Shown here in pieces: positions 5,842 to 32,767 of a DNA stretch of 40,309 nt (position 1 is the first letter of the stretch; every line of letters begins with the position of its first letter). The notes under the pieces were generated by a model. The model was not told the DNA's origin and made no database searches. It saw only the letters and a list, made by a program, of their open reading frames with translations. Origin of the DNA: Candidatus Scalinduaceae bacterium (GTDB taxonomy: Bacteria > Planctomycetota > Brocadiia > Brocadiales > Scalinduaceae); contig JBHICG010000027.1 of NCBI GenBank assembly GCA_046759445.1, forward strand, positions 1-40,309, read 5' to 3'. A program made the position numbers and the translations under genes.

Positions 5842-5874
5842 TGCACCAGATTTACGTCTTGTAGTGATTAATAT
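5842..5874 (+). promoter_or_regulatory. Conserved bipartite motif, copy 1 (TGCACCA-N15-GTGATTAATAT), putative alternative-sigma promoter
   Basis: Recurs with an identical 15-nt spacer elsewhere in the window; lies upstream of ORF 6019. Confidence 0.7.
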
Positions 5875-6018
5875 AAATAGAGAATTAGACGAGAAAATAG
5901 ATAAGAAATTGCTGTCCGGAATGCTTTAAAGAGGCTTTTTTTATCTTTATAGAAATGTAGTTTAGTTAATGAAATATAATAATTTTTTTTAATTTTCTCT
6001 GCAATCCGTAATTGGGAT

Positions 6019-7020
6019 ATGAGGATGAAGGTAAAAAATATTTCTAAAATTAGTGGGCTGGGTTTTCTTTTTATAATGATAAGCACGGCTAATATGTCAT
6101 TTACGATCGGTGATGAAATAACGTATAGTTTTTCAAAACCTGGTTATAAACCCGTGCCAGACACATGCCCTTATATCGAAGGTGGAGGAGAACTAAACGA
6201 CAATTTCCTGTATAAGAAATGGTGCGAGGAAACATTTGATAATGGAAATTATATATACGAAGCATACAAAAATATAGCTTTTAATATCAAATATGCTCCA
6301 GAGCCACCCAAGACAGATTCCTGGCAAACACCCTTAGAGACTGCCAGGCTAAAGAGGGGTGATTGTGAGGACGTGGTATTACATTTCTTCTCACAACTTC
6401 CCCCAAAACAGACAAATGCCGTAATCATATGGGGATGGGTAATAGACAGGAGAAGTGGTGTTGGGATGGCACATGTATGGTATCAACTAACAGATAAAAC
6501 AGGGCAAAGATATGTGGTAGAAGGCTTTTCTAAAGACTGGAACGGAATAATTCCAATGGAGATTGTGCAATATACCGAAATAAGAAAGCCCATACTTAGA
6601 ATCTCACACTGCATGGTTAATAGGTTGTCCCATTTGTTTCCAGAAGTAGAAGACTGGCAGATGTGCCAAACACTGGTAGATTTGTTTGCAACAACAAGAT
6701 TTATTACTCATGTTTCAGGTAGACGATTTTTTTCGCAGGATATAAGTATTCAACTTCATCTTTCTGCCTATGAGTTTATTGAATATCCTACGAGTGCACA
6801 ATACAGGTCCCGAGAATATACTCAGTTTCCAAACTATTCACCAAGACGCAAAATTGCTCCAAATGTAAATAAAAGAATTTCTAACATCTTAAAAAAGCTT
6901 CATGAAGTTTTTTCGAGATATGAAAACCAAAAAAGAGATGATAGATCAAATATACAAGTCTCTCATAAAAGTAACATGGAACTGATTTATTCTGAGAGAA
7001 ATCTTAAGTGTAGACGATAA
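6019..7020 (+). CDS. Exported transglutaminase-like cysteine peptidase domain protein
   Basis: N-terminal hydrophobic segment; WQTPLET...RGDCED, AHVW and YVVE match the Cys-His-acid arrangement of transglutaminase-like/BTLCP proteins. Confidence 0.7.
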   Translation: MRMKVKNISKISGLGFLFIMISTANMSFTIGDEITYSFSKPGYKPVPDTCPYIEGGGELNDNFLYKKWCEETFDNGNYIYEAYKNIAFNIKYAPEPPKTDSWQTPLETARLKRGDCEDVVLHFFSQLPPKQTNAVIIWGWVIDRRSGVGMAHVWYQLTDKTGQRYVVEGFSKDWNGIIPMEIVQYTEIRKPILRISHCMVNRLSHLFPEVEDWQMCQTLVDLFATTRFITHVSGRRFFSQDISIQLHLSAYEFIEYPTSAQYRSREYTQFPNYSPRRKIAPNVNKRISNILKKLHEVFSRYENQKRDDRSNIQVSHKSNMELIYSERNLKCRR

Positions 7021-7083
7021 AGGAAGTATTTATGTTTATCAGGAAGAAATTTAATGATTTAACAAAACGGAGAAAATATAAAA

Positions 7084-7260
7084 ATGCATAAACAAGGCGT
7101 TGCTTCCGATAAATATGCAAAATTTACCATAAAAGAACTTTTATCAATATTCAAAATGGAAGCACAGCGTATATGCAAAAAACCTGATGAGGCGCATTCT
7201 ATAGCAGAAAGTACCTTAAACGATTTTATCAAGAAGCATGGTAAATATGTACACATTTAA
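7084..7260 (+). CDS. Small hypothetical protein (58 aa), paralog of 31042-31230
   Basis: Absent from the ORF track. GGAGA upstream; MHKQGVASDKYAKFTIKELLSIFKMEAQRICKKPDEAHSIAESTLNDFIKKHGKYVHI aligns without gaps to the 31042-31230 product. Confidence 0.72.
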   Translation: MHKQGVASDKYAKFTIKELLSIFKMEAQRICKKPDEAHSIAESTLNDFIKKHGKYVHI

Positions 7261-7561
7261 AATATGATATTAAGAAATTATAAGATTAAGTTTTTTAAAA
7301 GGGGGTAAATTGTGAAAAAACAACTAGATTGTGAATACTATTACGATGATATTTATCCATCACTTCTAAAAAATAAGCCATCACTTTGTGAAAGATACTT
7401 ATTAAATATATGTTGGAGTTGGCTGAATTTGTGGTATAGGATTTGTCATCTGAAAAATACAAATTGAATAATGAGTCCTTAAAACAATTGTACGGGATAC
7501 TGTCGTTGGTTGCTGATTCCCATTCTATATGTCTTTTTGACACATATCTATCATCATCATT

Positions 7562-7778
7562 CATGACAATGCAGAAATATACAATTCACTAGGCGCGGTA
7601 TGTATAAAACTTGGATTTTTTGGAACTGATGATAACTCGAAAATATTAGAGTATTTTCCAAGAAGCTAGGGAATCGTTTCTAATCGACCCTAAGCATGCT
7701 GACGCCCACTTTAGTCTTGGTTTTATACACATGGCTTTTCAGGAAAAAGACTCTACTGTGCAGGAATATAACAGGTGA
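7562..7778 (+). pseudogene. Frameshifted TPR-protein remnant
   Basis: One frame reads NAEIYNSLGAVCIKLG; a shifted frame reads IDPKHADAHFSLGFIH...QEYNR*. Both are TPR-like and no start is evident. Confidence 0.5.
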
Positions 7779-7876
7779 TATAATTTAGAAAACTGGGAGT
7801 ATTGAAAGTTGCATGGTATGGGCGAATTGCGAAAAAAATAATCAAGTAATTCAAATAAACAAGTTACCAAGACGTG

Positions 7877-9406
7877 TCATTTCATATCTGTTACTGAACC
7901 AGACTGGTGCCACATTATGCCTGTTGCATGATCGATTACCGTTTTGTTGCCATTGATTGCTTTCGATTCATAAATGTGTTTTATTGTACTATAGCCATAA
8001 AACGTATTATAATCGCCTTCCGTTCTATATTTATCCGTTTTCTTGTAATTATTTGTCTTAGGTATTGTGAAATAGGGTAATAAAATTATTTCGGTTCCCA
8101 AAATTCTAGAGCTATATGAACGTAGTTTTACCAGTGATGGATTTGATTGTTCTGTTCTGGGTTGATGATGAATGGTTGTTGGCAGTTTTGTGGTAGATTC
8201 CTTACGGCTCTTCCAGTATTTCAGTCTTTCCTTTGCGTGACTGCGCATTGCCTCGTCTTCTTTACTGTGCGGGTTGTCAGCAGAATATGCAGCTATAAAT
8301 TCTTCCCACATCTGTACCTTTTCTGATGATTTTAGTATATCATTTTTATCTATGTCCTGGTTTTTGGAATACCTACTTGACATGTTTTCTTGCCACCCAT
8401 ACCATTCCTTTCTATTTTGTTCCCGTTCTTTGATAAGATTATCAAAATAATCATCTTCAACAATCTCCGGAGGTTGTGGAAGGAATTTGTGTAATGGTGT
8501 TTGATAATCTGGTTTATTTAGTTGAAAAACAAAATCACCTTTGTCCAAATTTGGATTACGTATTTTTCCATATTGTGGGTGTTGTGCCCCTTTTGTGTAA
8601 TTTGCTACTTTTGCTTGAAGAAACTCACCTAATTCAGTTCCAGTCACATAACCATCTTCATTTACATCTCCTTCTCCATTTAATGCGGTTACAAACTGTT
8701 GTCTAAAAATACTTTCATCTGGAACTTGTTCACCAGCACTCCCAGATGTGATAAATTGGCGTACAGGTTTATTAGTTTTGTAGGTAATATTCTCTGGTAC
8801 TGCACGTGAAAGTGCGAATATAGAGCCGGAAAAGCAACTATCAAATAAAAACAAAGCATGTTTGGATTGAATACGCATCGCATATACTTCAATCTGCTGC
8901 ATATTTATTGTCTTAGTTAAAAAGCCACCATACTCTCTATGAGGGTTGGGAGCATCGACAGGAATTATATATCCCATTTCTTCTCCATAAGATTGCTTTG
9001 CCGTATAGCCATGTCCCGCAAAATAGAACAAAAGTCTGTTTTCTGGTTTAAAACCGTATTCATTGATAAAATCAGTAAATGCATTGTATAATTGATCGTG
9101 GTCAGGATCATACACTATAACGACGTGAAAACCATGTTTTTCCAAAATTGAGCGGACCAGCCGGACATCTTCCTGTACACCTTTCAGTTTAGGCCAACCT
9201 TTTGTGTAATTACTTGATCCTATTATGAGCGCGTGACTCTCCTTATACAGCCCCACTTGTTGGTCTGTACTGTCTCTAATTGGAACGATGTCTAAACCCC
9301 GTTCGGCAAATAGTGTAGGTGAGAAAAAGAGATAACTTAATAGAATGGGTAATAGTAGATATTTTTTTCCCAAATCCATGACAATTTCCCAGTATTTATG
9401 CAACAA
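7877..9406 (-). CDS. Exported caspase-family (peptidase C14) protein ending in a truncated DUF1566/Lcl-like domain
   Basis: Signal peptide (start may be ATG 9379), ALIIG.SNY, YFAGHG and FDSCFSG dyad motifs, QHPQY. C-terminus NGNKTVIDHATGIMWHQSGS is followed by an early stop. Confidence 0.88.
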   Translation of the reverse strand: MLHKYWEIVMDLGKKYLLLPILLSYLFFSPTLFAERGLDIVPIRDSTDQQVGLYKESHALIIGSSNYTKGWPKLKGVQEDVRLVRSILEKHGFHVVIVYDPDHDQLYNAFTDFINEYGFKPENRLLFYFAGHGYTAKQSYGEEMGYIIPVDAPNPHREYGGFLTKTINMQQIEVYAMRIQSKHALFLFDSCFSGSIFALSRAVPENITYKTNKPVRQFITSGSAGEQVPDESIFRQQFVTALNGEGDVNEDGYVTGTELGEFLQAKVANYTKGAQHPQYGKIRNPNLDKGDFVFQLNKPDYQTPLHKFLPQPPEIVEDDYFDNLIKEREQNRKEWYGWQENMSSRYSKNQDIDKNDILKSSEKVQMWEEFIAAYSADNPHSKEDEAMRSHAKERLKYWKSRKESTTKLPTTIHHQPRTEQSNPSLVKLRSYSSRILGTEIILLPYFTIPKTNNYKKTDKYRTEGDYNTFYGYSTIKHIYESKAINGNKTVIDHATGIMWHQSGSVTDMK

Positions 9407-9450
9407 TTCTTAAATAAAAATTGTTGCATTACCCAATATTTGGTATCAAT

Positions 9451-11052
9451 CTATTTAAGCCCTTTGTTATAACTAGTCAGTTTTTCCTGGCTCTTATTTG
9501 AAACTATAGCGAGAGGTAGTTCTGTATCGTACTTTGGAGAAGCAGACAGGAATGGATGTTGCTTACTGTTTGTTTCGTTTTCAACTTGATACTTAACATA
9601 TTCAATCATCTCATGTAGAGAAACTATATTGTCCTTCTCAGTTCCATGGGTAAACCCGTCGGCCTCACCTTTCAGGGCCTTCAAAAGAGCCCATGTAAAA
9701 ACACCATGCCGGTCCCATTTTGTGCTCTCTAAAGACTGTTCGTAACCGTTAGAGCTGGAAAAAACGACTCGTCCCGGGCGAATATGAGCTAAACGGCGAA
9801 AGTATTTGTTATAAACATTTTCACTCGCTTCTATTTTCACACCTTTTGTACCATATTCTGGGGATACACCTGCGCTATGACATGCGTCAGCCAAAACAAT
9901 TACGCGCTGTGACATAATGGTCTTCCAGAGAACCTTTTCAATATCCCACATTGGGAAGGCACTACCTGAAAGATTGTCCGGTTCCACGTCATAAGGGATA
10001 AGATATAGATTATCTGGCCTGTCGGGATCAGGCGCACCATGACCAGAGAAATAAATGATTACAAGGTCATCGCTTTGTGCATCTTTTAAGAATGTAAAGA
10101 GTGCGTGTCTGATAGAAGAGTAAGTAGCTTCTGCGTTTGTCAGTAGTAAAACTCTATCTTTCTTGAATCCTCCACCTTCAGGTGACATTAGAAAGTTGCA
10201 AAATTCATTTGCATCTCTATCGGCAAATTGTAGATCCGGAAACATCGCACCTCCCCGAAAATATCTTGAAATACCTATGACTACAGCCCATTGATTCCTG
10301 GGTTTACCAGTTAGCAACTCATCGCTTTGGTTTTGAGCTTCACCAAGGTCCGGGCGTTCAAGAAAAGAGAAGTCCGACCTTTCCTCTAGGAACTTCGATT
10401 CAACATCATACAAAACTTCTTTAAAGAAATTGCGGCAACTCTTATTTAATTTTTCCTCAACTAAAGGTGGCAATATGGATGGGTTAATTGTAATTCCAAT
10501 TTTTTCACGTCTTTCAACTACTTCAGGCATTTGTAATGCAACTTTAAATTCTGCTACTTTACGACCATTTGGTGTTGAAAGCCTGAAGTCTGCATCAATC
10601 TCTGCCTTTACTTTCCAGTTGTCAAAAGTAACTGGGGCATATATCGCCTGAACTTGTGTTGAGCTAAAATTTGTGTCGGTACAAAACTTATGAAGCTTTC
10701 CTTCTAGAATAAGGTCTGCATTTTCTAGACCAGCTCTTGTAGCATCCAGTACTATATTTCTGGCTTGTAAGTATGAAGCAAGTGCATCAGGAAATGACTT
10801 TACTCCCATATCACGCCATCGTTTTCGCTCTTCGGTTGTTAGAAGTGTGTCGCTTCTATATTCTTCTGAAAACAATCCTTCAAAATCCTTTACCCCTAGC
10901 ACTATTTTTAACTTATTTTCTTCTTCTCTTGTTGGTTCTATCTTAAATGCCCTAATGTCCAAAGGTTCTCTTCTAGACATTGATGATGTACATCCTATGA
11001 TAAAAAGTAAGGTTCCAACTAACAATGTTAAAAAAATTTTACTGTTTTTCAT
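9451..11052 (-). CDS. Lipoprotein with C-terminal caspase-family (peptidase C14) domain
   Basis: Lipobox IIGC; WAVVIGISRY, LQFADRDA, YFSGHG, ADACHSAG, HGVFTWALLKALKG, QHP. Confidence 0.92.
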   Translation of the reverse strand: MKNSKIFLTLLVGTLLFIIGCTSSMSRREPLDIRAFKIEPTREEENKLKIVLGVKDFEGLFSEEYRSDTLLTTEERKRWRDMGVKSFPDALASYLQARNIVLDATRAGLENADLILEGKLHKFCTDTNFSSTQVQAIYAPVTFDNWKVKAEIDADFRLSTPNGRKVAEFKVALQMPEVVERREKIGITINPSILPPLVEEKLNKSCRNFFKEVLYDVESKFLEERSDFSFLERPDLGEAQNQSDELLTGKPRNQWAVVIGISRYFRGGAMFPDLQFADRDANEFCNFLMSPEGGGFKKDRVLLLTNAEATYSSIRHALFTFLKDAQSDDLVIIYFSGHGAPDPDRPDNLYLIPYDVEPDNLSGSAFPMWDIEKVLWKTIMSQRVIVLADACHSAGVSPEYGTKGVKIEASENVYNKYFRRLAHIRPGRVVFSSSNGYEQSLESTKWDRHGVFTWALLKALKGEADGFTHGTEKDNIVSLHEMIEYVKYQVENETNSKQHPFLSASPKYDTELPLAIVSNKSQEKLTSYNKGLK

Positions 11053-11276
11053 AAGATCACCCTCCGATTAAAAGATAAAAGTTTTGCATGAAATATGTAA
11101 CAGATTTCTTTCTTGATTAAACTTAAGGCAACCACAAGATAAGGAATACTTTTTTCTTATATCTCAGGAATTCTCTACACTATAGATTGAAAATCAATTT
11201 TAAAACAAATAACTTATCAATTGTCAATCGATTTTCATAAAAAACCTTGTCTTTCTATCCTAATACAACAAAAGGT

Positions 11277-13133
11277 TTATTTCCTTGTCTCAAATGGCCA
11301 ACTGCTTACTGCATAGACAAACTGCGAACCTGATTCATAATAATCAACCTCTTTGTATTCCATTTCGTTTTCTGTTTTTGGAACTATACCTATCCCCCTC
11401 GTCATGATTTCATGCAACCCTCTCATCTCAACCGGTGAGACTGCTCTAAAGACGGAATCATCTCCACTCCTTATCATATCTGCTGATGCTACTAAGAAAG
11501 AAGTATCTTTTGAGAGTACCCTCCTTATCTGTTCAATTGATAACGGTACTGAGGTAGCGATGACCTTTATGTATTCCTTTCCAGGCGGTTCTACTATGGA
11601 CAACTTAAAATCATCATTTGTTGATGGGATGGAATATCTGACGTTTGCTCTTATAAAATTATTTCGATTATATCTATTAGGAAATAGTTCCCAAATCTCT
11701 CCATTGCTACGCACATTTAATAATGTAACATAACAATCCCTGTCAGATGTTAGATAAATGGTAGTTGGCTCACCAATTCTATACACCTTACTGTTCGTCC
11801 AGACATTAATATTAAAATCGGTATTTTTGTCCGTATCATCGACGTTCCAGCCCAACATCTTAACGTTTTCAGAGACAATGATTCTGCCTGTCTCTACATG
11901 GATCATTCTTGCATTAATCTTAAATGTATTTTCTATGTATCCAACCCAGCCTACAACAACGCTCTCTGTATTAACCATTTTTCCTAATTCTTTTCTTGTC
12001 CTCTCATCAATAGCGCCTGTTCCACCCATTTCTATCTCTTTTAATATATCTGGTATTGAGTTGCGTTCATAAACTTTCAATCTTTGCAAGTTAACAAGCT
12101 CACTTATGAGTTCTGTTGCAACTGCCTTTCCCTGTGTGTTTTCTTCTCCTCTTAGATCAGAAAACGGAACTACAGAGACAGTCTTTTCTTTTAAAGAATA
12201 ACTGCAGGATGTCATCGCCCAGGCAATTAAGCTTATTGAATATTTGGAATATCTTTCTATAATCTTGTTAGCTATCTCTGGTGATGGGTTCAGGCTGTAT
12301 GCCTCTTCGAGCCTTTCAAGGCATTTCTGGAATTCGTGTCTATCTGCTAGCTCAACGGCTTCTTCAATAAGTTTGTCAATTAACCCATTCCTGAGCTCAC
12401 GTATACGATTTACTGATTTTTCCCTTAGAACTTTAGCATCAGGATGCATATCGAGAAAAACTTTATATGCCCTTAATGCCTCAGCCTTGTCACCACATTC
12501 ATCATAAGCCAGCGAAAGGTAGTATTGCGCCTTCTCGTTTTTTGGGTCTTTGATCGTAAGGGTATAAAAGTAGTCGATAGCTTCCTTACATTTTCCACTC
12601 ACTAGCAATATATGTCCTTTGTCAATCTCTGGTTTAATTCCGAGAATGTTATTCTTAATCCTTTTATATTCATCTTTCGGATAGCGGACGAGCACATAAA
12701 CATTGTACCTAATGGCTTTTTCTACGAGTAGGTCTTCACTATATGCTGCTACCTCTTTAACCCCTCGTGCAATTTCGGAGGAGAGAATCCTAACCCTATC
12801 TCTTATATAACTGCCTGCATCGCTGATTTCTGTGTCATGTGCAATGCCTCTTTCATACCTTTGTTTATCATAGTCCACCGTAACCTTTGACTGGATCATT
12901 CGGGAGATCTTGCTAACGGCGTTTTGAAAGGCATCATCCCACCCTGATTCATAGGTTAGGGCATGGGTCTTTCGACCGACAAAATAATGATACTTTTCAT
13001 CCTCATCGGGAACTTTGTTTACCCATTCTGGACGAGGCACTCTGGGGGGCCTATCAACATATTTTTCAGTAACACATCCAGCAAGTAAATATACTGCGAC
13101 AAAGGATATTATTAAAAAAGATAATTTTCTCAT
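11277..13133 (-). CDS. Multidomain lipoprotein: LPP20-like, TPR, CsgG/FlgO-like and DUF4384-like domains
   Basis: Lipobox LAGC; PEWV...YFVG (LPP20-like); TPR (AQYYLSLAYDECG); KVYERNSIPDILKEIEM...KINARMIHVETGRII (CsgG-like); YRIGE...DCYVTLLN...LFPN...PPGKEYIKVIAT (DUF4384-like). Confidence 0.8.
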   Translation of the reverse strand: MRKLSFLIISFVAVYLLAGCVTEKYVDRPPRVPRPEWVNKVPDEDEKYHYFVGRKTHALTYESGWDDAFQNAVSKISRMIQSKVTVDYDKQRYERGIAHDTEISDAGSYIRDRVRILSSEIARGVKEVAAYSEDLLVEKAIRYNVYVLVRYPKDEYKRIKNNILGIKPEIDKGHILLVSGKCKEAIDYFYTLTIKDPKNEKAQYYLSLAYDECGDKAEALRAYKVFLDMHPDAKVLREKSVNRIRELRNGLIDKLIEEAVELADRHEFQKCLERLEEAYSLNPSPEIANKIIERYSKYSISLIAWAMTSCSYSLKEKTVSVVPFSDLRGEENTQGKAVATELISELVNLQRLKVYERNSIPDILKEIEMGGTGAIDERTRKELGKMVNTESVVVGWVGYIENTFKINARMIHVETGRIIVSENVKMLGWNVDDTDKNTDFNINVWTNSKVYRIGEPTTIYLTSDRDCYVTLLNVRSNGEIWELFPNRYNRNNFIRANVRYSIPSTNDDFKLSIVEPPGKEYIKVIATSVPLSIEQIRRVLSKDTSFLVASADMIRSGDDSVFRAVSPVEMRGLHEIMTRGIGIVPKTENEMEYKEVDYYESGSQFVYAVSSWPFETRK

Positions 13134-13313
13134 GGATATTTTTCCTTAAATATTTCTTGTAATCTAATTAATTTGTTTTAGTTAAAAAATTGGTTTAGAA
13201 TCTATGGTCTAATCTTTCCAGTAAAAAACAGTTTGGAAATGGTTATTAAGATTCTTGATTATATTAAAAAAATGCCTATGGTCTCTATGACATGTGACAA
13301 GCTGTTTAGTTTA

Positions 13314-14501: not shown

Positions 14502-14638
14502 TTTATTTATATTCCAAAATCAAAAAGCCCTAAAATGTAAATGTCGTTGGAAGTTTCATAAGCTTATTTAAACCACTTTCTGTATCTCCCAAAGGATGTA
14601 AAAAATCACAAAATATAAAAATGTAAAAATCCAGAAGC

Positions 14639-22301: not shown

Positions 22302-22359
22302 GACCTTTTTTCCTTTCTCCTTTTTTCAGGAAAAAAATTAGAAAAATAATAACCTTATG

Positions 22360-22665: not shown

Positions 22666-22926
22666 TCATTTTGGGTTGAAAGTCTTGATATTATCATTAA
22701 TGGTATCTGAGATAAAATTGTCAAGATATTGCATTACAATGGATTTTTCTGGATTAAGATGGAAATCTGTATTAAATTTTTTAAGTACGAATGGAGTAAT
22801 TCCCACGATGAATATACCTAAAAGTATTCCAAATACAAGACCTCTAAGCTTGTTCAGCAAACCTGAAAATCCCATAATACCAAAGAGAAGTATAACACCA
22901 ATAGCTGCAATGTCTAACCAGTACAT
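22666..22926 (-). CDS. Small membrane protein with a CvpA-like N-terminus (86 aa)
   Basis: GGAGGA RBS before ATG 22926; MYWLDIAAIGVILLFGIMGF and a second TM segment. Confidence 0.55.
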   Translation of the reverse strand: MYWLDIAAIGVILLFGIMGFSGLLNKLRGLVFGILLGIFIVGITPFVLKKFNTDFHLNPEKSIVMQYLDNFISDTINDNIKTFNPK

Positions 22927-24249: not shown

Positions 24250-24612
24250 TTAAAGTTTCTGTGTTTTGGGTTTTTTCCTTGATGGTTCTTGGTTTTTGCT
24301 GGCATTTACAACTAATAATTCCTTATTTATTTCCTTAATTAATGCCTGAAATGCTTCCATGTCCTTTTGGAGCATCTTTAAGCTCGTAAAAGGATCCTCT
24401 TCTCTGCCATAAGGCGTATTCGTGCTATTAGTGGTGACAACCTTTTCAGTCATTTCTTTATTAATGTTGTCATCCTTAATAAGTTTTTTCTTTATAAGGT
24501 CTATTCTATGGGCAGAAAAAAACCCAAGACCATAAGAAAAAAAGGTTAGAACTAGTATCAAGATAACGTTTTTCATGCTTAATTTTATTAATCTTACTTT
24601 TATCACAGGCAA
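24250..24612 (-). CDS. Hypothetical single-TM protein
   Basis: TM segment VILILVLTFFSYGLGFF followed by a short coiled-coil-like region; start may be ATG 24576. Confidence 0.6.
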   Translation of the reverse strand: MPVIKVRLIKLSMKNVILILVLTFFSYGLGFFSAHRIDLIKKKLIKDDNINKEMTEKVVTTNSTNTPYGREEDPFTSLKMLQKDMEAFQALIKEINKELLVVNASKNQEPSRKKPKTQKL

Positions 24613-24654
24613 CTCTCGAAAAAACGGTTAGTAAAACTATTTCATACTTCTATA

Positions 24655-24687
24655 ATATTAATCACTGTAAAAAGTAAATCTGGTGCA
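24655..24687 (-). promoter_or_regulatory. Conserved bipartite motif, copy 2 (TGCACCA-N15-GTGATTAATAT)
   Basis: Shares 24 identical nt (TTATAAATATTGCACCAGATTTAC) and the GTGATTAATAT box with copy 1. Confidence 0.7.
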
Positions 24688-24691
24688 ATAT

Positions 24692-25612
24692 TTATAATAA
24701 AATTTCTTTTAATTCTTGATCCTCTACTTCAAGAAATTGTCCGTCTTTAAGACTGATACCTTCAACTAAAAGTATCCAGTATCCTTGTGGCGTTTTAGAT
24801 ATACGGGCTTCTGTATAATTTATGTCTTTAACTGGTTTGGCAATAAACTTAATTGCCGACATCTCTTTCCAGTGGAAGTATCCAGCAGAATTACCTAACG
24901 CAATGGATATTTTTAAGTTCCCTGCATCCATTCCTTGCCTTGCCAATTCTGATTTGGTCCAATAGAGAAGGCCTTTTTCAGGTTCTATTGTACGATTCGA
25001 ATTATGGTTATAAAAATCCTGTAGCTTATCTTTGGTATCAAGTTTCTTAAACTTAAAATTTGGGGACTCGCAGACAAGAAGGTAACTGGGGTCACGAGTG
25101 GGATACGCTACTATCTTAAAGCCAAAAAAGGAGATAATTTCCCTCATGGTTTGATTTGTTACATCTTCAGAGAAGCTTACGTGCATATCTGTAACTATGG
25201 TACCTTCAAGCGGCAGGGCTCTTTTATACCTTTTGTATTCGTCAAGGGGCATGAATTGCTTTTGCTTTCTGTCAACGTCTGGAATTTCCACTATGTTTAT
25301 GATCTTTGCCTTGATGTCTTTATCTTCTTCCAAGTTTTCTTCCTGTTGCTTCCTTGTTCCCTTTGAGGATTCCTCTGTTGTTTTAACAGGTCTATACTTT
25401 TGGTTATTTAATGGTTCATTTATTTCTTTTTCATCCAAATCTGGTAAAAAATTAGCGGGGATTAATGAAATACTGTCCCTGGATTTGCTATTAGCCTTCT
25501 CAGGCATTGAACCTTTATCTTGTAACATTAGAATTACTAATATTAGAAGATTGCATATTAGAGATATAACAAGGTATTTGATTAGTCGTTTCATATTTTT
25601 TCTCCACTTCAC
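24692..25612 (-). CDS. Putative atypical TonB/TolA-like energy-transducing protein
   Basis: Follows exbD; N-terminal TM (ISLICNLLIL), long charged linker, unrecognised globular C-domain. Confidence 0.45.
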   Translation of the reverse strand: MKWRKNMKRLIKYLVISLICNLLILVILMLQDKGSMPEKANSKSRDSISLIPANFLPDLDEKEINEPLNNQKYRPVKTTEESSKGTRKQQEENLEEDKDIKAKIINIVEIPDVDRKQKQFMPLDEYKRYKRALPLEGTIVTDMHVSFSEDVTNQTMREIISFFGFKIVAYPTRDPSYLLVCESPNFKFKKLDTKDKLQDFYNHNSNRTIEPEKGLLYWTKSELARQGMDAGNLKISIALGNSAGYFHWKEMSAIKFIAKPVKDINYTEARISKTPQGYWILLVEGISLKDGQFLEVEDQELKEILL

Positions 25613-25724
25613 ATTGGAAGTAGTGTCAAATTATCAAGTGCAGAATATAGAAAATTGAATTCCCCATTTGTATTATCTCTTTCTTTTATATTTTTACTTC
25701 GTTTAAGTTCATTAATTGGATTCA

Positions 25725-26141
25725 CTATCCTTTATTCGCAGAGCTTGCTTTGAAATAGACTTTTGGTAAATCCGCCTCACGAATAGTCTGTAATATGCGC
25801 AGGGCATCACCCAGGAAGGCATTAGAATCACCATTAATTATTACGGTGACATCGTCTCCAGACTCTTTTTTCTCTACTAGTTTTTTAGAAAGTTCAGTTT
25901 GAGATGTAACTGGTTCTTTGTTGAAAAAGAGTTTGCCATCTTTTGTAATGCTAATTGTAACAAAGTCCTTTGGCTCAATATTTTGAACCTTCTTCAATTC
26001 AGGATTTTCAACATCTACCAGTTCAAGAAAGACCATCCTGGTCATCCCAATGATGCAGAAGATTACTATAATGAATATTATGTCTAACAAAGCAAGCATG
26101 TTAAATTCAGGTGTGCGCGCATACTTTTTTGATAATCTCAT
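25725..26141 (-). CDS. exbD: ExbD/TolR-family biopolymer transport protein
   Basis: FNMLALLDIIFIIVIF TM with the conserved Asp; ISITKDGKLFFN; VIINGDSNA. Confidence 0.9.
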   Translation of the reverse strand: MRLSKKYARTPEFNMLALLDIIFIIVIFCIIGMTRMVFLELVDVENPELKKVQNIEPKDFVTISITKDGKLFFNKEPVTSQTELSKKLVEKKESGDDVTVIINGDSNAFLGDALRILQTIREADLPKVYFKASSANKG

Positions 26142-26367
26142 ATTAAAATCTCACTTTGTAGCATTAGTCTGTAAACGCTTTGGACAGGCAGGGACGAAAA
26201 CCTATTCGAGTTGTTTACTCTGTTAAAATAAGTATGTTCCTTCAAACATGTATATCTAATCTATGGTAAATAATAATGGTATTTTCATATTATATTTATA
26301 TGTCTATTTAACAGGGTGAGCCTAATAACGAAAAACAAGCGATTGCGTATACACCCTCTAGGTCATT

Positions 26368-26997
26368 CTATGGTTTCTGGCATCTTATTTTTGCTAATTT
26401 AAATTCATTTAATCTTGACTCGATTTTTGATAGCGCCCTATCTGCTATTCCACCAAAGAAGTGGCTTGCTGCCAGATTGACTACAGCAACAACTAAACCG
26501 AGAAAAGTCGTTGTCATTGCCTCAGATATACCTCTTGCTATCAACGACATGTCAACTGTCTGACTCATTGTTCCAAATGCCTTGATTAACCCCGTAATAG
26601 TACCCAATAGTCCCAGTGCAGGCGCTATAACGGCACATGCATTAAGTATTCGTAAGTAACTATGTGACCTGCCGAATTCCTTGTCCACAGCTATTGCTAT
26701 TACGTTGTCCATCTCTTCCCTTTGAGGTATATCAGGAAGTAAATATCTGAATATTCGTACAAAGAGGTCTTTTGATTTTTTTGCTAACCCGCACGCCTCA
26801 ACAAATCTTCCAACTTTTATTGATTCGATTATTCTAGATTCACGAAAGGAATTTCTCCTAATCCACAGGAAGGACCAGAAGGTCATTCTTTCCATAATTA
26901 CGCCTATTGATAATATCCAGAGGAAAATAAGACATACTCCTATAGGACCACCATTTTTTAAAACTGTATTTAAAATATCCATCAGAAGTTTCTCCAA
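26368..26997 (-). CDS. exbB: MotA/TolQ/ExbB proton-channel protein
   Basis: GGPIG...IMER, APALGLLGTITGLIKAF, GISEAMTTTFLGLVVA. Confidence 0.9.
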   Translation of the reverse strand: MEKLLMDILNTVLKNGGPIGVCLIFLWILSIGVIMERMTFWSFLWIRRNSFRESRIIESIKVGRFVEACGLAKKSKDLFVRIFRYLLPDIPQREEMDNVIAIAVDKEFGRSHSYLRILNACAVIAPALGLLGTITGLIKAFGTMSQTVDMSLIARGISEAMTTTFLGLVVAVVNLAASHFFGGIADRALSKIESRLNEFKLAKIRCQKP

Positions 26998-27025
26998 TTT
27001 AAAATTAGTTCATTGTAGTTGCTGA

Positions 27026-27415
27026 TTATTCTTCAAGAAATAATTCTTTTGTACTTTCACTTTCCAATTCACCATAAACCAGAAAACAACGATAACACCT
27101 ATGACACGTGAAATCACATGAATCCAGGGTTCTACTAGCAATGTATTTGCGAAAGGCATTTATTCTCTCGACAGACATATTATTATTTATATTCAAAATC
27201 TTCCTTTCAATCTTGCTGCCAATCTCTTCCCCTTTACCATCGTAATTTGATGAATAGTGAGATTTTTTATCTGACACACGTTTTGCGTGATTCAATTGTC
27301 TAACTATGTCAATGTTTGGTCTATCAAGATATGCCAAATAATCAGTTCCTGGTGAATCATCAATTGATCTTGAGGAAAGAGTCCACCACAGCATGGCTAA
27401 GAGCAAGATTGTCAT
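27026..27415 (-). CDS. Hypothetical protein with C-terminal 4-Cys motif
   Basis: AGGAAGGA RBS; hydrophobic N-terminus; CDFTCHRCYRCFLVYG near the C-terminus. Confidence 0.65.
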   Translation of the reverse strand: MTILLLAMLWWTLSSRSIDDSPGTDYLAYLDRPNIDIVRQLNHAKRVSDKKSHYSSNYDGKGEEIGSKIERKILNINNNMSVERINAFRKYIASRTLDSCDFTCHRCYRCFLVYGELESESTKELFLEE

Positions 27416-27507
27416 TTTCGCATCCTTCCTGAAAAAAGTTTTTAGGCAGGATAATAGGTTAAGACAGATTATAAATCTTATATTGCTGTCTAAAATTTCC
27501 TTTGCGT

Positions 27508-28248
27508 CTAATTTACCTTTTTTCCGTAAAGAAGATTACATACATAGCAATCACTTCTCCCGCATGAAAATTCACAAAGGGCAAGGGTATTGTGTTGAAC
27601 ATCACCCAATAGATTCCTCGTCTCCTGGTAAGTAACTTGCTTGACAATATTACTCAAGTTGTTTTTTGCTTGTAGCGCAATTTTTGCCCTATCCTTGGTA
27701 TTATTCGCTTCGTTCTTTTGAATAAATGGATTTGAAATATTAGTAACGGTTTCCATTGTCTCCATATCCAAATTCAAATTAGAGATGCGTGTTCTAACTT
27801 CTACAAGGTCTTCCCGGAGTTCTACCATCCTATCTTTCAACTCTTTATCTTTTTCGTTATAGGCGCTATCAAAGGAAATCCATGTATTGTTAGCAATATC
27901 GCTATCCACTGACTCCAACATATGTTCAATTTGTGAATATTCCTTTTTTACTTTCTTTGGGAGCGATTTAAGCTGTTTTTCTAAATTATCAATCTCTTCG
28001 AGGATTTCTTTTTCCTTCTTTTGATTGTATGCAAGCTGTCTCCTGGCAATGTAGATATCGTTATTATTGGACATTACTTTCATATAATTTTTTTGTGCCT
28101 TGCTAGCACGTGCTTTTTTATCAACTGTCTTTTTAGCTTCAACGGTACTTTCATTGTGATTTTCATTGATGACTTCAAATGTATAATCTCCATATACGGT
28201 GAAACATGGAAACATTAAGATTATGGGCAATAAGATGAACTTTTTCAT
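27508..28248 (-). CDS. Exported coiled-coil protein with C-terminal 4-Cys motif
   Basis: AGGAG RBS before ATG 28248; signal peptide; heptad-rich region; CEFSCGRSDCYVCNLLYG. Confidence 0.75.
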   Translation of the reverse strand: MKKFILLPIILMFPCFTVYGDYTFEVINENHNESTVEAKKTVDKKARASKAQKNYMKVMSNNNDIYIARRQLAYNQKKEKEILEEIDNLEKQLKSLPKKVKKEYSQIEHMLESVDSDIANNTWISFDSAYNEKDKELKDRMVELREDLVEVRTRISNLNLDMETMETVTNISNPFIQKNEANNTKDRAKIALQAKNNLSNIVKQVTYQETRNLLGDVQHNTLALCEFSCGRSDCYVCNLLYGKKVN

Positions 28249-28345
28249 TGTAAGACTCCTTTCTATCAATAAGTTTAAAACTTAAAAACAATAATCACAA
28301 TTTCAGGTGATTGCCGTATATGATACGGCTAATAAAAGAATGAAC

Positions 28346-29353
28346 TTAGAAATATGTTTCAGCCTGTTTAGTTATCCATTCTTCTAGATCATCATTCCAT
28401 TTAATTCCATCAATCTCAATAGATTTACCGTCCGGGTTATTGACCAAGAATCTTGTTAATTCATCAGTTACCTGATTCATAATCCCTGAGAAGCCATCTA
28501 CAGTATCCCAGACATCTTGTACCTGTGTATACAGCTCAATTGCTGTACCGTCTCCAGAAAGCCCAGATTCGGGTACAGTAAAAATCATCATCATTCTGCA
28601 TACTTCAGCCGCACTTGAAAACTTTTGTCTCTCAACATTAAGCTTATCAAGTAAATGCTCTGTATGGCTACTGAGTTTACGGTAGAATATCCTTTTCCCA
28701 TCGACCATAGCTACAGCCTTGTTGATAACTTCTATTTGACCTGGAGTTTGTTGATTGCTATACGTAAAAGTATCTATTTTGTTCTTTAATAGATACAACT
28801 CTTCCTTCAATTCATCCGTCTGTTCATCCATATATTTCCTCGCAAGCTCACTTGACTTTTTTTGCAATTCCTCAAGCTTGCCCGAATTAATTTTGGCGTC
28901 ATCTGAGAGTTTTTGTAATTTTGCACCAAGTGATGTCTTCGCTTTCTCGAGTTCCCTATCTATTTCTTTAAATGAATCCTTTATTCTGTCTTTCTCTTTT
29001 ATCACTCCCACCATCTTTTCGTCTATCTTGTAAATGCTTTCAGAAAAGACGAATTGAAGTTGATCTAAAGTCTCTTGAGTTCTATTTTGTTTTACAGCCT
29101 CCAGTGCAGCTTTAATTTCTTCGGTAGCTTGATTAAGAGATTTTCTCAATGGTTTTGCCGTGTTAAGAGAATTGCGGATTTCCTTCTTAGGTTTTTCAAT
29201 GTTAATCTTGAACTCAGATATATCCGGGAGGAATCCAGTCCTTCCTTGAAAATCAGAAGACTGTTTTCTTTCAACAGATGCATGCACAACTATATTGTTA
29301 ACAAAGATAAATGATAAAACCATAAATGACATTACACATGATAATTTTTTCAT
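28346..29353 (-). CDS. Exported long coiled-coil protein
   Basis: GGAGGTG RBS, signal peptide (VHA), extended K/E/L-rich helical region. Confidence 0.8.
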   Translation of the reverse strand: MKKLSCVMSFMVLSFIFVNNIVVHASVERKQSSDFQGRTGFLPDISEFKINIEKPKKEIRNSLNTAKPLRKSLNQATEEIKAALEAVKQNRTQETLDQLQFVFSESIYKIDEKMVGVIKEKDRIKDSFKEIDRELEKAKTSLGAKLQKLSDDAKINSGKLEELQKKSSELARKYMDEQTDELKEELYLLKNKIDTFTYSNQQTPGQIEVINKAVAMVDGKRIFYRKLSSHTEHLLDKLNVERQKFSSAAEVCRMMMIFTVPESGLSGDGTAIELYTQVQDVWDTVDGFSGIMNQVTDELTRFLVNNPDGKSIEIDGIKWNDDLEEWITKQAETYF

Positions 29354-29367
29354 TAGTATACACCTCC

Positions 29368-30108
29368 TTAAAATTGAAACATTGGGTTTGAATTCTCAAC
29401 TATTTGTTTAATCCTTGCTTTTTCTTCCAGGGGCATATTCTTCCAGCTTGCTAAAGCTTCATCTTGTTTTCCTGATGCATATTGAAGGACTCCGAGCAGA
29501 TAATTATCCTCAACTGTAATGGGAAGATTGTTTTTTCTTAAGAATCGAATGAACTGTTCATAATCAGTTCTGGCCGAATCGAAGTTATCCATGCCTATAT
29601 ATGCTACTGCTCTGTTGTGCTGTAAAAATCCAGATACACTACTTTCTCCTTCAATAGCAAGGGCGGCGCTGAAGTCCTCAACTGCAGGTTTGTATCTACC
29701 CTGCAAGATATAAATCCTGCCCCTGAGGTTCAATGAATGAACGTTCAATGGATATTGCTTGATCGATTTGTTTACGTTTCGAAGTGATTCAGATATATTA
29801 CCCGTCTTAAATTCCAATTCTGCCCTGTAATAATATGCCAGTGGAGAATTTTCGGGATAGACATTAATGGCGTCGCTGAAGGTCTGTTTTGCGTTTGAAT
29901 ATTGCTTTATTCTCCATTGGGCTATACCCTTGTTTAAGAGGGCTTGATAATTATCTGAATGTTTTAAACCTTTGTCATAAAAGATAATTGCTTCCTCATA
30001 CCTTCCATCGTGCATATATTGGTCACCACGAGTAAACGACTTCGTAGAATTACATCCAGCAGCTACAACACATCCAAAAAAAATTATTATAAATAACTGT
30101 TTATACAT
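29368..30108 (-). CDS. TPR-repeat lipoprotein
   Basis: GGAGGA RBS before ATG 30108; lipobox AAGC; TPRs (ALLNKGIA, AYYYRAE, SLNLRGRIY, HNRAVAY). Confidence 0.88.
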   Translation of the reverse strand: MYKQLFIIIFFGCVVAAGCNSTKSFTRGDQYMHDGRYEEAIIFYDKGLKHSDNYQALLNKGIAQWRIKQYSNAKQTFSDAINVYPENSPLAYYYRAELEFKTGNISESLRNVNKSIKQYPLNVHSLNLRGRIYILQGRYKPAVEDFSAALAIEGESSVSGFLQHNRAVAYIGMDNFDSARTDYEQFIRFLRKNNLPITVEDNYLLGVLQYASGKQDEALASWKNMPLEEKARIKQIVENSNPMFQF

Positions 30109-30152
30109 AACTTTTTCCTCCAAATCTAAAAAGTAAATTTATTTTAACTAAT

Positions 30153-30185
30153 CTGTTAATCAAAGAATATTTGTCTAGTGGTGTA
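30153..30185 (-). promoter_or_regulatory. Conserved bipartite motif, copy 3 (TACACCA-N15-TTGATTAAC)
   Basis: Same 15-nt spacer; directly upstream of the TPR-lipoprotein/ExbBD gene run. Confidence 0.65.
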
Positions 30186-30268: not shown

Positions 30269-30679
30269 CTAAGTTTTATGTCTAACTAACTGATTTTGTT
30301 TAGCAGAATCTTCTACATCTGCTTCTGGTGGTAAATGACTTAATACAGTCTCTTGTTCATAGGTTTTAAATTTTACAATTTCCTTTATGCCCCAGTATAT
30401 CTGGAATCCTCCAAATATTGTCCAGAAGCTATTACTTGATTCAAGACCGCCAAGGCCATTGAGAAAACCTATGAGCATGAGTCCCATTCCAAGAATGATG
30501 AACATTATTCTGTGTTTCACTATAAAGCAGAGAATACCAATAATAATCAGCACTATCCCCCACTCTGCCCATAGAAGCGATGATAGGACAAAATGTAATA
30601 TACCCATAATTATCAGCCCAGCACCCCAACTATTTAGGTCTTCTGAAATCACATTCTTTATATCTTTAACTTCAGCCAT
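30269..30679 (-). CDS. Hypothetical 4-TM membrane protein
   Basis: AGGAG RBS; four hydrophobic segments. Confidence 0.75.
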   Translation of the reverse strand: MAEVKDIKNVISEDLNSWGAGLIIMGILHFVLSSLLWAEWGIVLIIIGILCFIVKHRIMFIILGMGLMLIGFLNGLGGLESSNSFWTIFGGFQIYWGIKEIVKFKTYEQETVLSHLPPEADVEDSAKQNQLVRHKT

Positions 30680-30722
30680 AATATTACTCTCCTTCCTTAA
30701 AATTATTCTGTCAGTAGATTAC

Positions 30723-30995
30723 TTAAGCTGTTTTCTCAACAATGATGTCGGTATCTTTAACTTCTGGAATATTAACCACCCTGGGCATTGAAATAAGCAC
30801 TATCTGGGTGATAATCACTATAAAATCTAAGATTACAAATACGCCTGTATTTTCAATAGTTCCTCCTCCTGCTCCTATAACTATTCCTACAAAAAAAGCA
30901 AACCCAGCCCCCACTCCTAACGGCATTAAGGAAAACCATTTCCAGCCTCTATTCCATGCAATAACCGTTAATACTATTTCCGCTATTAGTAACAT
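30723..30995 (-). CDS. Hypothetical small membrane protein
   Basis: GGAGGA RBS; three hydrophobic segments. Confidence 0.7.
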   Translation of the reverse strand: MLLIAEIVLTVIAWNRGWKWFSLMPLGVGAGFAFFVGIVIGAGGGTIENTGVFVILDFIVIITQIVLISMPRVVNIPEVKDTDIIVEKTA

Positions 30996-31041
30996 TTCTT
31001 TTCCTCCTTCTTTTTTAAGATGTTATAAATATTGTTTTTTC

Positions 31042-31230
31042 TCAGTAAACAATTCTTACTGAATTACTATAACGCTTTATAAATTCTGACAGTGTAACTA
31101 CCGCAAGTAAGCTCGTATTTATTGGTAACTTAGATACTTTTTCTGATTCTTCCTCAAAGATTGATAATAAATCCATTAGAGTGAAAGATGATTTGTCCAG
31201 AGTATCCGTATCTTCCGTGTCTTTCTGCAT
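31042..31230 (-). CDS. Small hypothetical protein (62 aa), paralog of 7084-7260
   Basis: AAGGAGG RBS before ATG 31230; FTLMDLLSIFEEE...TLSEFIKRY. Confidence 0.72.
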   Translation of the reverse strand: MQKDTEDTDTLDKSSFTLMDLLSIFEEESEKVSKLPINTSLLAVVTLSEFIKRYSNSVRIVY

Positions 31231-31284
31231 TTGATTTAACCTCCTTTCTTTTCTGGTTAAAGAAAAATTTTTTTTCACCCTATT

Positions 31285-31317
31285 ACTAAAATCAGCGCTA
31301 AATCGAAAGATGGTGTA
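31285..31317 (-). promoter_or_regulatory. Conserved bipartite motif, copy 4 (TACACCA-N15-CTGATTTTAGT)
   Basis: Same spacing; upstream of the 62-aa gene. Confidence 0.6.
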
Positions 31318-31439
31318 AAAAAATTATTATAGTTTTTCGGAATTTCTATGACCTATTGAGATTGAAGTAGTTTTTATGCTTAATTGTGTTATGGCGGGTT
31401 ATGAGCGAAGTGAATGAGATTCTTATTGTATATATTCAG

Positions 31440-31545
31440 TAATTAGTTTCTAGTTGCGGAAAGCTTATAAAAATGTCATTGGCAATTCAGTAACGGCAGA
31501 ATTGCTTATGTGACAATATAGTGTTTCCGCAACAAATACTAATTA
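31440..31545. repeat. Long imperfect inverted repeat
   Basis: Nested arm pairs TAATTAGT/ACTAATTA, GTTGCGGAAA/TTTCCGCAAC, TGTCA/TGACA and GCAATTC/GAATTGC. Confidence 0.65.
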
Positions 31546-31584
31546 GATAACTATTTTGGAAAAACAAATAAAATCATAATGTTT

Positions 31585-31965
31585 TTATTGAAACTTATAA
31601 GTTACCTTTTTTTCTGTTTCTTCTAGTAATCTTTCTTTGGTTAGATAAGATTTCTCAATATATACAAGATTTGGGTCTGTTTTTCTAAGGCACTTATATC
31701 GTCTTTCAGGATAGGCACTGATTACTATTACGGGAATATCTTCAAACTCCGGCATACTTTTTAGGTACAAGAAAAACGTGTCTCCTGTAACCATATCCAA
31801 AAGTATGTCCAGGATTATTAAATCTGGTTTGTCTTCCTTTAACTTCATCATCGCTTCATCTCCATCATAGGCATAAATAATATTATAATTTCTGCCCTCA
31901 AACATTAGCTCATATAAGTCATGAAAGAACTTTTCATCTTCAATTATCATTATTTTTTTGTTCAT
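31585..31965 (-). CDS. Single-domain response regulator (receiver only)
   Basis: GAGGAGG RBS before ATG 31965; IMIIEDE, PDLIILDI, IPVIVISA, YIEK. Confidence 0.9.
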   Translation of the reverse strand: MNKKIMIIEDEKFFHDLYELMFEGRNYNIIYAYDGDEAMMKLKEDKPDLIILDILLDMVTGDTFFLYLKSMPEFEDIPVIVISAYPERRYKCLRKTDPNLVYIEKSYLTKERLLEETEKKVTYKFQ

Positions 31966-32027
31966 ATGTCCTCCTCTCAGTACAAAAGGGAATAGCAATG
32001 TAGATAAAAGTTTGATTGCCTTTTACT

Positions 32028-32060
32028 GCATATATCTATGCTAGACTATAAAATGGTGTA
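32028..32060 (-). promoter_or_regulatory. Weak copy of the bipartite motif (TACACCA-N15-TAGATATAT)
   Basis: The upstream box and T-tract match copies 3 and 4; the downstream box is degenerate. Lies upstream of the receiver gene. Confidence 0.35.
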
Positions 32061-32602
32061 AAAAAAATATTGTTACACATAAATTCTTTTTCAAGAATAC
32101 TATATATAATAGTAACCGGTCTCTTATGATGACTAAAGCTTTTACGTCAATTCGTTTTCTACGCCCTAATATGAATATTTTGAAAAATTATTAACTAGTG
32201 TGGACAAAACTTAGATTGGTACAGATTTTAAGTGCAAACAAAGGTGTTTTGTCTTGGTTGTCTATCGATGAGCTTTTAATTGACAAAGATAGTGATATCC
32301 TGTAACGTAATGAATAATTAACTGTGATGTAAGAGTATGATTTGATTTGCTTTATGAATGATGAATAAGATAGGAAGTTTTTTATTAAAAATTGAAATAG
32401 AAGACTTCGGTTATTAAACTATTCAATTCTGCAAAATGTAGTTTTTGAATGAAAACCTTTTACTTTACGGATTCAACAATAACTAAGTCATAAGTGTTTT
32501 ATTTCAAATTAGCTTATATAATTTCTGAAACATAAATACTATATAATTTGATACAAGATTTGTACATGTTTAACGAATAATTGTGTCGAAAATAAAATAT
32601 TA

Positions 32603-32635
32603 TGCACCAAATTCATTTTTTGTGGTGATTAATAT
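32603..32635 (+). promoter_or_regulatory. Conserved bipartite motif, copy 5 (TGCACCA-N15-GTGATTAATAT)
   Basis: Both boxes identical to copies 1 and 2; upstream of the sigma gene. Confidence 0.7.
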
Positions 32636-32734
32636 AATATTGGAATAAATGTATAGTCTTCTATATGTTGTTTTAAAAAAATATAACGACATCTGCAACA
32701 TTTGGGTAAGTTTTCTAACTTAATTTGTTTTTTC

Positions 32735-32767
32735 TGCACCAGTAGGAAAACTTGTAATGATTATTTA
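32735..32767 (+). promoter_or_regulatory. Conserved bipartite motif, copy 6 (TGCACCA-N15-ATGATTATTTA)
   Basis: Second tandem copy upstream of the sigma gene. Confidence 0.62.

Follow-up and report, generated by a model that had tools for sequence, protein, structure and literature searches.

A TGCACCA-N16-TGATW motif as the predicted promoter of a divergent, island-encoded sigma factor in anammox bacteria

Introduction

About half of sigma factors with extracytoplasmic function (ECF) autoregulate and many are local regulators, according to the sections of PMC7776599 that deal with them. The locus described here lies on the 40,309-nt contig JBHICG010000027.1 of Candidatus Scalinduaceae bacterium (assembly GCA_046759445.1; this whole stretch is called the window). 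It resembles the local regulators treated in the relevant parts of PMC7776599, PMC4598750 and PMC7826278 in having a small sigma2-sigma4 protein, an adjacent zinc-binding anti-sigma (ZAS) factor, predicted autoregulation, near-consensus promoters and a small linked regulon. It also resembles the DdvS/DdvA system of Myxococcus xanthus, which, in the portions of PMC6061681 and PMC11506125 concerned with it, combines a sigma factor and a zinc-binding anti-sigma in a local island with four promoters of fixed 16-nt spacer, and in which a protease-like domain faces the envelope. In CalpL-CalpT-CalpS, as outlined in 10.1101/2024.05.08.593097, a Lon domain, an anti-sigma and a sigma are likewise encoded together, and release by cleavage was proposed. 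CASP-sigma, with Csx30 and Csx29 of the type III-E clustered regularly interspaced short palindromic repeats (CRISPR) system, is likewise a sigma gated by a protease; its locus contains three copies of the motif, few others are found elsewhere, and homologous loci are predicted in Ca. Scalindua brodae (both from the pertinent passages of PMC10028731). Neighborhoods in which a caspase accompanies an ECF sigma were reported by Kaur et al. (PMC8195603), with no Lon-type version among those its relevant part describes.

Here we report that a bipartite motif, TGCACCA-N16-TGATW, recurs in the window and in related islands beside a four-gene cassette encoding a sigma-70-family protein (gene start, 32937), an anti-sigma, a protein of about 100 amino acids (aa) and a membrane protease. 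From sequence comparison we consider it probable that the motif is the -35/-10 promoter of this sigma, with the release mechanism and regulon proposed below. Our literature search, which did not extend to ECF-group logos, found no description of the motif or the cassette and no sigma promoter motif from anammox bacteria.

Results

The motif in the window

The pattern scored in the window and the genome was TRCACCA-N16-TGATT, equivalent to the 15-nt spacer plus one variable base of the original prediction, which had proposed a promoter-like motif from this DNA alone. Six exact copies, all intergenic, and one near copy were recovered where that prediction had placed them. The sites are as follows (percentages are identities to relatives).

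32735..32762 (+), ancestral, predicted autoregulatory site before the sigma gene; boxes invariant in 9/9 aligned upstream regions
32603..32630 (+), another site facing the sigma gene, window-specific, probably copied from the 24660 site; top matrix score, 35.6
30158..30185 (-), ancestral proximal site of the TPR/coiled-coil/ExbBD operon; orthologous in 10 relatives (boxes 91%, spacer 49%)
31290..31317 (-), ancestral, the distal one for the TPR operon, here with small genes inserted behind it; 8 relatives have the orthologous site (boxes 88%, spacer 54%)
24660..24687 (-), ancestral site inside the operon, separating the 306-aa gene from the 120-aa gene; orthologous in 8 relatives (boxes 99%)
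5842..5869 (+), window-specific; a duplicate of the 24660 site that also took along the final codons of the 306-aa gene
32033..32060 (-), weak site, window-specific, ahead of a receiver-domain gene; TACACCA-N16-AGATA, one mismatch, matrix score 19.8

With one mismatch allowed, the window held seven matches (the additional one coding, at 10033) against 0.51 ± 0.72 in 100 shuffles, and the six intergenic copies compare with a mean of 0.002 and a maximum of 1 in 1000 triplet-block shuffles; the significance of these shuffles is overstated, because the pattern was drawn from the tested sites themselves. In the 3.62-Mb genome there were 12 exact copies, six of them inside this 40-kb contig, which makes up 1.1% of the assembly, and spacers of 14, 15, 17 and 18 nt gave 2, 2, 1 and 0 matches. 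An independent matrix, trained on 22 sites of relatives only with the spacer masked, placed five window sites in the top six of the genome and all seven in the top eleven (scores 18.2–35.6), whereas the reversed genome gave no match at 18 or above. A de novo dyad search in the window alone ranked CACCA-N16-TGAT first and found no second enriched dyad. All seven sites precede a co-directional open reading frame (ORF), 12–307 nt before its first possible start codon, as had been proposed.

The four ancestral sites (32735, 30158, 31290 and 24660) have boxes 88–99% and spacers 49–55% identical to those of relatives; for the 32735 site, compared with 10 relatives, the values are 99% and 54%. The 24660-class site is degenerate in one relative (G022; G and L numbers designate genomes and loci) and has no match at one mismatch in L046. 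Three window copies do have identical boxes, as the original prediction noted, but they are not independent, because the 5842 site and probably also the 32603 site copy the 24660 site: 5815–5874 matches 24655–24714 (87% over 60 nt, E 2e-13), and 32595–32639 matches the same copy region at 24651–24693 (80% over 45 nt, E 6e-4). Both sites of the tandem pair before the sigma gene are present, the 32735 site being ancestral and the 32603 site window-specific. A further element lies immediately upstream of the ancestral one.

32693..32721 (+), degenerate housekeeping-type promoter just upstream of the predicted autoregulatory site; putative basal promoter

It aligns with TTGCCA-17-TATCTT in most relatives and is below the threshold of the sigma-70 scan, which returned 60 sites against 75 expected and was uninformative. 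Reading the motif itself as a housekeeping promoter (TTGCAC + TAATAT) was rejected, since the spacing would be 22 nt and TAnnnT is unconserved in relatives; a FliA-type reading was ruled out by the -35 box. An Rfam search of the window gave no match. The region is present as contigs in two metatranscriptome runs of one study, one contig spanning the 31290 site; this is neutral, as no start, strand or level is readable.

Three candidate remote sites were seen in G000: a strong one at C28:14006-14033(-) (score 26.8), 382 nt before a 332-aa gene; one with one mismatch at C15:10960(+), before a 284-aa gene; and one at C1:71850-71877(-) that points antisense into an ExbD-like gene. An intergenic repeat at 31438–31547 of the window has 71 blastn matches in the genome and shows a depth spike in one RNA-library run.

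Conservation among Brocadiales

Among 723,412 dyads scored de novo in the island intergenic DNA of six relatives, with the window excluded, GCACC-N17-TGAT ranked first (22 seen, 0.19 expected, 6/6 genomes). The spacer was fixed, as originally proposed: loci L001–L010 contained 24 sites with 16 nt and none with 12–15 or 17–21 nt. Fifty-six of the 60 intergenic island sites face a same-strand ORF, one does not and three run off the contig. When nine sigma upstream regions were aligned without any pattern, GCACCAG and AATGAT were the only invariant blocks longer than 3 nt, and a sigma-facing site was found in 15 of the 16 homologues with upstream DNA, including four metagenome loci, G052 and G076. 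In relatives, TGAT is followed by A in 26/53 and by T in 22/53 sites, and 52/53 have G as the second base of the -35 box, giving the consensus TGCACCA-N16-TGATW with an A/T-rich tract upstream. The variant TACACCA, present in 3/7 window sites and 1/53 sites of relatives, is almost confined to the source genome.

Motif and cassette also co-occur across the class. The 11 cassette-bearing genomes of 132 contain 37 sites, 34 of them intergenic, and 10 of the 11 have two or more, whereas the 121 cassette-free genomes contain nine sites, eight coding and one intergenic, and never two per genome, a tally weakened by close kinship, incomplete assemblies and the derivation of the pattern from cassette-bearing genomes. 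The motif was not equally common where the sigma is lacking. Two genomes of another family provide after-the-fact confirmations of the motif-cassette linkage. G052 was flagged first by three sites and the target operon, with no sigma by single query, and a profile search then revealed a 219-aa sigma and an anti-sigma beside the sites; G076, first noticed through its anti-sigma, proved to have the same arrangement of sites. Relocated island genes in G003, L046 and G005 carry their own site. None of the nine other sigma-70 genes over the cut-off in the source genome has an upstream site (best score, 8.5). The distribution of the island among anammox bacteria (Brocadiales) is patchy, and no member was found outside the order: a search of 401 phylum genomes gave two matches, both already known. 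In the protein collection, homologues of near length numbered five for the sigma, 18 for the protease and nine for the anti-sigma.

Some occurrences stand apart from the cassette. In G003, G008, G012, G019 and G022 the motif is found with a 59-aa His/Pro-rich lipoprotein gene with WxxGxW-like repeats, beside an oxidoreductase gene (L013:5206-5466, L012, L014 and L017); the 59-aa product has no Pfam match. The four copies in G033 (L011:7209-7533, G033:C37) were discarded as a 99-nt tandem repeat over an efflux-type gene without a cassette, as was a site common to G003, G018, G019, G021 and G025, which is antisense inside a coding region. De novo dyads from the G052 or G022 island alone were dominated by local repeats. 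The island's two-promoter intergenic block has an inverted second copy about 29 kb away in G052 (G052:C42:81405-81703, L105).

The sigma cassette

The cassette is a four-gene operon, head to head with the TPR operon.

32937..33668 (+), divergent sigma-70-family factor: sigma2, short linker, sigma4 and a tail of about 40 aa, without a sigma3 core
33649..34467 (+), soluble anti-sigma carrying a pair of HxxxCxxC (ZAS) motifs plus a C-terminal domain; zf-HC2 x2, E 7e-11
34534..34848 (+), 104-aa protein without a known family, in every case encoded between anti-sigma and protease, in the order conserved in relatives
34842..35993 (+), Lon-type Ser-Lys protease domain interrupted by two transmembrane (TM) helices and a loop

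Profile and structure comparisons place the 32937 protein in the sigma-70 family. The family profile matched RpoS (E 4e-4), SigW and FliA in the PDB, aligning sigma2 at RpoS residues 112–171 and the linker with sigma4 at 225–327; residues 172–224 have no counterpart, indicating that sigma3 is lacking, as in ECF (group 4) sigmas. The window protein matched HTH_28 (E 0.003) and, over residues 77–205, TIGR02937 (E 1e-5), and scored 0.97 to sigma clusters in the Atlas. The first 16 rows of a fold search with its predicted structure were all sigma factors, for example SigB (Z 11.1, root-mean-square deviation (rmsd) 7.8, 144 aligned), pro-SigK (Z 10.1, rmsd 2.8, 99 aligned) and RpoS region 2 (Z 9.3, rmsd 2.9, 95 aligned); the model has a predicted local distance difference test (pLDDT) of 65.5, and Z values under 13 can be generic for helical folds. 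Strain variants on RNA-library contigs keep the sigma frame (one 3-nt insertion, two silent and two replacement changes). In alleles P0008 (L124/L111) and L005:15417-16951 about 110 aa are inserted after sigma2, ahead of the linker, and G005 has two tandem cassettes, the second one split. Further sigma genes with downstream zinc-finger partners lie at G000 C12:15016, C68:17074 and C24:28590; none has the motif, and two of the three adjoin CHAT- or FlgP-like genes.

The anti-sigma gene overlaps the sigma gene, and both ZAS motifs are invariant in seven orthologues; domain and TM prediction found no TM helix, TPR or CHAT in the product. A model of the complex reached a score of 0.69, the best of three controls 0.00; the model thus lies above a mark attained by 116/157 solved and 2/215 mismatched pairs, with runs agreeing in at least 62% of contacts and partner pLDDT of at least 71. 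The anti-sigma is thus predicted to bind the sigma, although the pass may reflect likeness, because ZAS-sigma complexes have already been solved. The 104-aa protein may be an adaptor. The terminal protease, which the original prediction missed, has S97 and K145 invariant in six orthologues and TM helices at 215 and 315. Lon_C was above cut-off in one orthologue (E 1.2e-5) and Lon matches in the PDB were weak; the predicted Lon model is poor (pLDDT 54), and Foldseek gave no match at E 0.001 or better for either of two predicted models. Judged by sequence, this protease is the likely trigger of the system.

Target genes and neighborhood

24250..30123 (-), conserved target operon, same order in relatives (Pfam)
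7877..24111 (-), co-directional envelope genes without their own site here (Pfam)
30269..31998 (-), lineage-variable stretch of small genes separating the cassette from the TPR operon: two small membrane proteins, a 78-aa ORF and a receiver domain
6019..7020 (+), 333-aa gene whose paralogue group is family-wide (26/28 genomes); apparently recruited here by a duplicated site

The target operon encodes a TPR protein, two exported coiled-coil proteins, a 129-aa protein, ExbB/TolQ-like and ExbD/TolR-like proteins, a 306-aa membrane-anchored protein and a 120-aa protein. It most likely specifies an ExbBD-energized assembly for envelope repair or defense. Since an Atlas search with the 306-aa protein gave no usable match, calling it "TonB-like" would reflect its position only. 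A 335-aa gene of the operon occurs in 9/61 genomes, all cassette-bearing. That the TPR/ExbBD run belongs to the regulon, as first suggested, is supported by the ancestral 30158 and 31290 sites. The small membrane genes do stand behind the 31290 site, but its orthologue is the distal promoter of the TPR operon and the genes were inserted; likewise, the 24660 site, assigned earlier to a 3D-domain unit, directly precedes the 120-aa gene and not the 3D gene.

Downstream, 7877..24111 encodes 3D, CvpA-like, LPP20-like, CHAT-TPR, CsgG/FGE, FlgT-like, CsgG/DUF4384 and two caspase-domain proteins. The CvpA-, LPP20-, FlgT- and CsgG/DUF4384-like, CHAT and caspase-domain genes trail the target operon in relatives, in variable order. 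The whole 7877..24111 set probably belongs to the regulon by read-through. The 6019 gene, labeled transglutaminase-like at first, matches no Pfam or NCBIfam family, so that the label has no support there. Its place in the regulon would hold only for this lineage: it has a site upstream, but none was found at any of 29 other homologue loci, and it appears to be a lineage-specific recruit. No cas gene was found among the 38 window proteins (one Cas3-like_C match lies within Mfd), the loci of relatives having been compared only with window proteins. No other regulator family was found among the conserved genes of the island.

Signaling genes stand behind several lineage-specific sites: a receiver (window 31585–31998), a receiver-AraC protein (G076, L125:259-1050) and a CheX-like cluster (G022, L016:6813-7495); in G022 a CBM6 protein does so as well. 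A family of 58–78-aa orphan ORFs has five paralogues in the genome (window 7084–7260(+) and 31042–31278(-); G000 C21:4723, C18:18203 and C3:52671), one of which sits behind the distal TPR-facing site, both here and in G005.

Discussion

Our findings suggest how the island could work. The weak housekeeping-type promoter would make sigma and anti-sigma together, and the ZAS anti-sigma would sequester the sigma. The Lon-type domain may be activated when the loop that links the two TM helices senses an envelope signal; it would then cut the anti-sigma, perhaps via the 104-aa protein. The freed sigma would transcribe its own operon, a positive feedback, and the divergent operon for an ExbBD-energized envelope assembly with exported TPR, CsgG/FlgT/LPP20-like, CHAT and caspase-domain proteins. 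The regulon may have grown by copying of a promoter fragment (5842 and 32603). Our confidence differs among the parts of this proposal. That the motif is the promoter of an alternative sigma seems very likely; that it is read by the sigma family of the cassette, quite likely; and that the divergent sigma copy of the window still reads it, a fairly good presumption. Release by the Lon-type protease has slightly better than an even chance. Comparative evidence supports the originally proposed local regulon of the 32937 sigma as a prediction from sequence.

Several observations weigh against a reading by the island sigma. It is the least conserved gene of the cassette: the window protein is 28–33% identical to full-length main-clade sigmas, and the values for G022 and G052 are 34–39% and 19–26%, against at least 37% for the anti-sigma and at least 49% for the TPR target. 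Between G022 and G019 the sigma shares 37% and the other three cassette genes 63, 85 and 74%; between the window and G024 the corresponding values are 25–29% and 66, 72 and 62%. The sigma4.2 helix is RRTLTSMLKN in the window, HTTVMRNLNE in the main clade and YNTVKSYYER in G052, and alleles of 19–39% identity, recognition helices included, accompany an unchanged motif. Single substitutions at equivalent positions shift ECF specificity, according to the part of PMC7776599 on this point. The window sigma is the weakest of five members scanned and below the TIGR02937 cut-off of 42.9 bits (window 25.3, P0008 30.9, P0004 38.5, G019 47.4, G052 63.6), and a Pfam search gave it no sigma match. Orthologues are frameshifted in the G024 and G026 assemblies, the lone sigma homologue without a site is the split second copy in G005, and G008 (94% complete) has one perfect intergenic site, before the 59-aa lipoprotein gene, and no cassette match. 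The counts also overstate independence, because many relatives are close kin.

A motif that stays constant while the recognition helices of the local sigma change, and that G008 keeps where no cassette was found, might have a trans-acting reader, either another conserved sigma or some other factor, whose gene lies elsewhere; the sigma-like gene of the island would then be just one of the targets, and its product would read something else. We regard this as improbable. Because such a reader, if a core sigma, should leave intergenic sites in island-free genomes, where they are nearly absent (1 in 121 genomes), our tentatively preferred account of the constant motif is a relaxed or convergent readout by swapped sigma alleles. 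No other sigma gene of the source genome has a site, the window holds no other enriched dyad, and single-protein queries found a C12-type sigma as a 51-aa fragment in one of five island genomes and a C24-type sigma in none of five, the latter query being without a positive control. The low family score of the window sigma and the G-to-A change at box position 2 could instead mean that the family reads the motif but the window allele has drifted, with weakened or changing specificity and inherited, eroding sites. This seems a little less probable still: an intact 236-codon frame at about 30% identity to its kin is unlikely to be neutral, the strain variants keep that frame, new copies with perfect boxes arose in the window lineage, and the G-to-A change may reflect relaxed specificity of the new helix.

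TGCACCA is similar to an NtrC half-site, a terminal GTGAT gives three window copies a partial inverted repeat, and some copies arose by duplication. An operator (an NtrC-like half-site or a tandem two-turn site) or the remnant of a repeat that was duplicated, rather than a promoter core, is nevertheless very improbable. NtrC enhancers are palindromic (TGCAC..GTGCA) and sigma-54 promoters read TGGCAC-N5-TTGC, whereas the motif is asymmetric and strictly polar towards genes; there is no palindrome, because G precedes TGAT in 1/22 sites of relatives. The four ancestral sites are not copies of one repeat, because only 3–7 of 16 spacer bases are common to them, and the conserved island genes include no other regulator family.

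We retain the promoter of the island sigma as our reading. Its regulatory logic is not new, because local autoregulated sigma regulons are common; what is added here, for an undescribed sigma family of anammox bacteria that Pfam misses, is a consensus promoter together with a list of targets. The motif could be used in a reporter to read out what is probably a Lon-gated, membrane-sensing counterpart of CalpL-CalpT-CalpS, and it links an uncharacterized ExbBD/lipoprotein envelope operon to that signal. With four alleles (19–39% identity) behind one motif, the strictness of the sigma-promoter code could be tested directly. More speculatively, and with more doubt than belief, the island may be a CRISPR-free, Lon-gated system whose sensor cassettes (sigma, double-ZAS anti-sigma, adaptor and membrane Lon) are exchangeable, fast-diverging alleles that all read one fixed promoter despite rewritten -35 and -10 recognition helices. 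If so, different sensors could be plugged into one ExbBD-driven envelope or defense machine, and nature would have supplied an exception to the code that relates residues to bases in alternative sigmas.

Comparison with known systems

Typical ECF promoters have CGT as their -10 element. Set beside the accounts of DdvS/DdvA, CalpL-CalpT-CalpS and CASP-sigma cited above, as far as these extend, the system works like all three but fails the defining features of the first two. The DdvS promoter given in PMC6061681 is GTAA-n16-CGT, against TGCACCA-N16-TGATW here, and DdvA is described there as a transmembrane TPR-CHAT protein, whereas this locus has a soluble anti-sigma and a separate two-TM Lon-type protein. 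The DdvS targets named in PMC6061681 and PMC11506125 are CRISPR systems together with those for antiphage signaling based on cyclic oligonucleotides (CBASS), against an ExbBD/lipoprotein envelope operon here. CalpL, in the account of 10.1101/2024.05.08.593097, is switched by cyclic tetra-adenylate (cA4) via SAVED and belongs to type III CRISPR loci; four orthologues of our protease gave no SAVED match and have two TM helices and a loop instead. The present locus also differs from CalpL-CalpT-CalpS, as described there, in its double-ZAS anti-sigma, the absence of a cas gene from the window, and a promoter and regulon that are predicted. CASP-sigma, which we compared by architecture and not by motif, depends in the relevant part of PMC10028731 on an RNA-activated TPR-CHAT protease and the inhibitor Csx30. 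The usual -35 element of ECF promoters is AAC, according to the promoter section of PMC4598750. Both it and the usual -10 element are absent from TGCACCA and TGATW. Moreover, unlike in ECF sigmas, sigma2 and the linker here resemble those of RpoS/SigB/FliA-type sigmas, and alleles with different recognition helices share one common motif.

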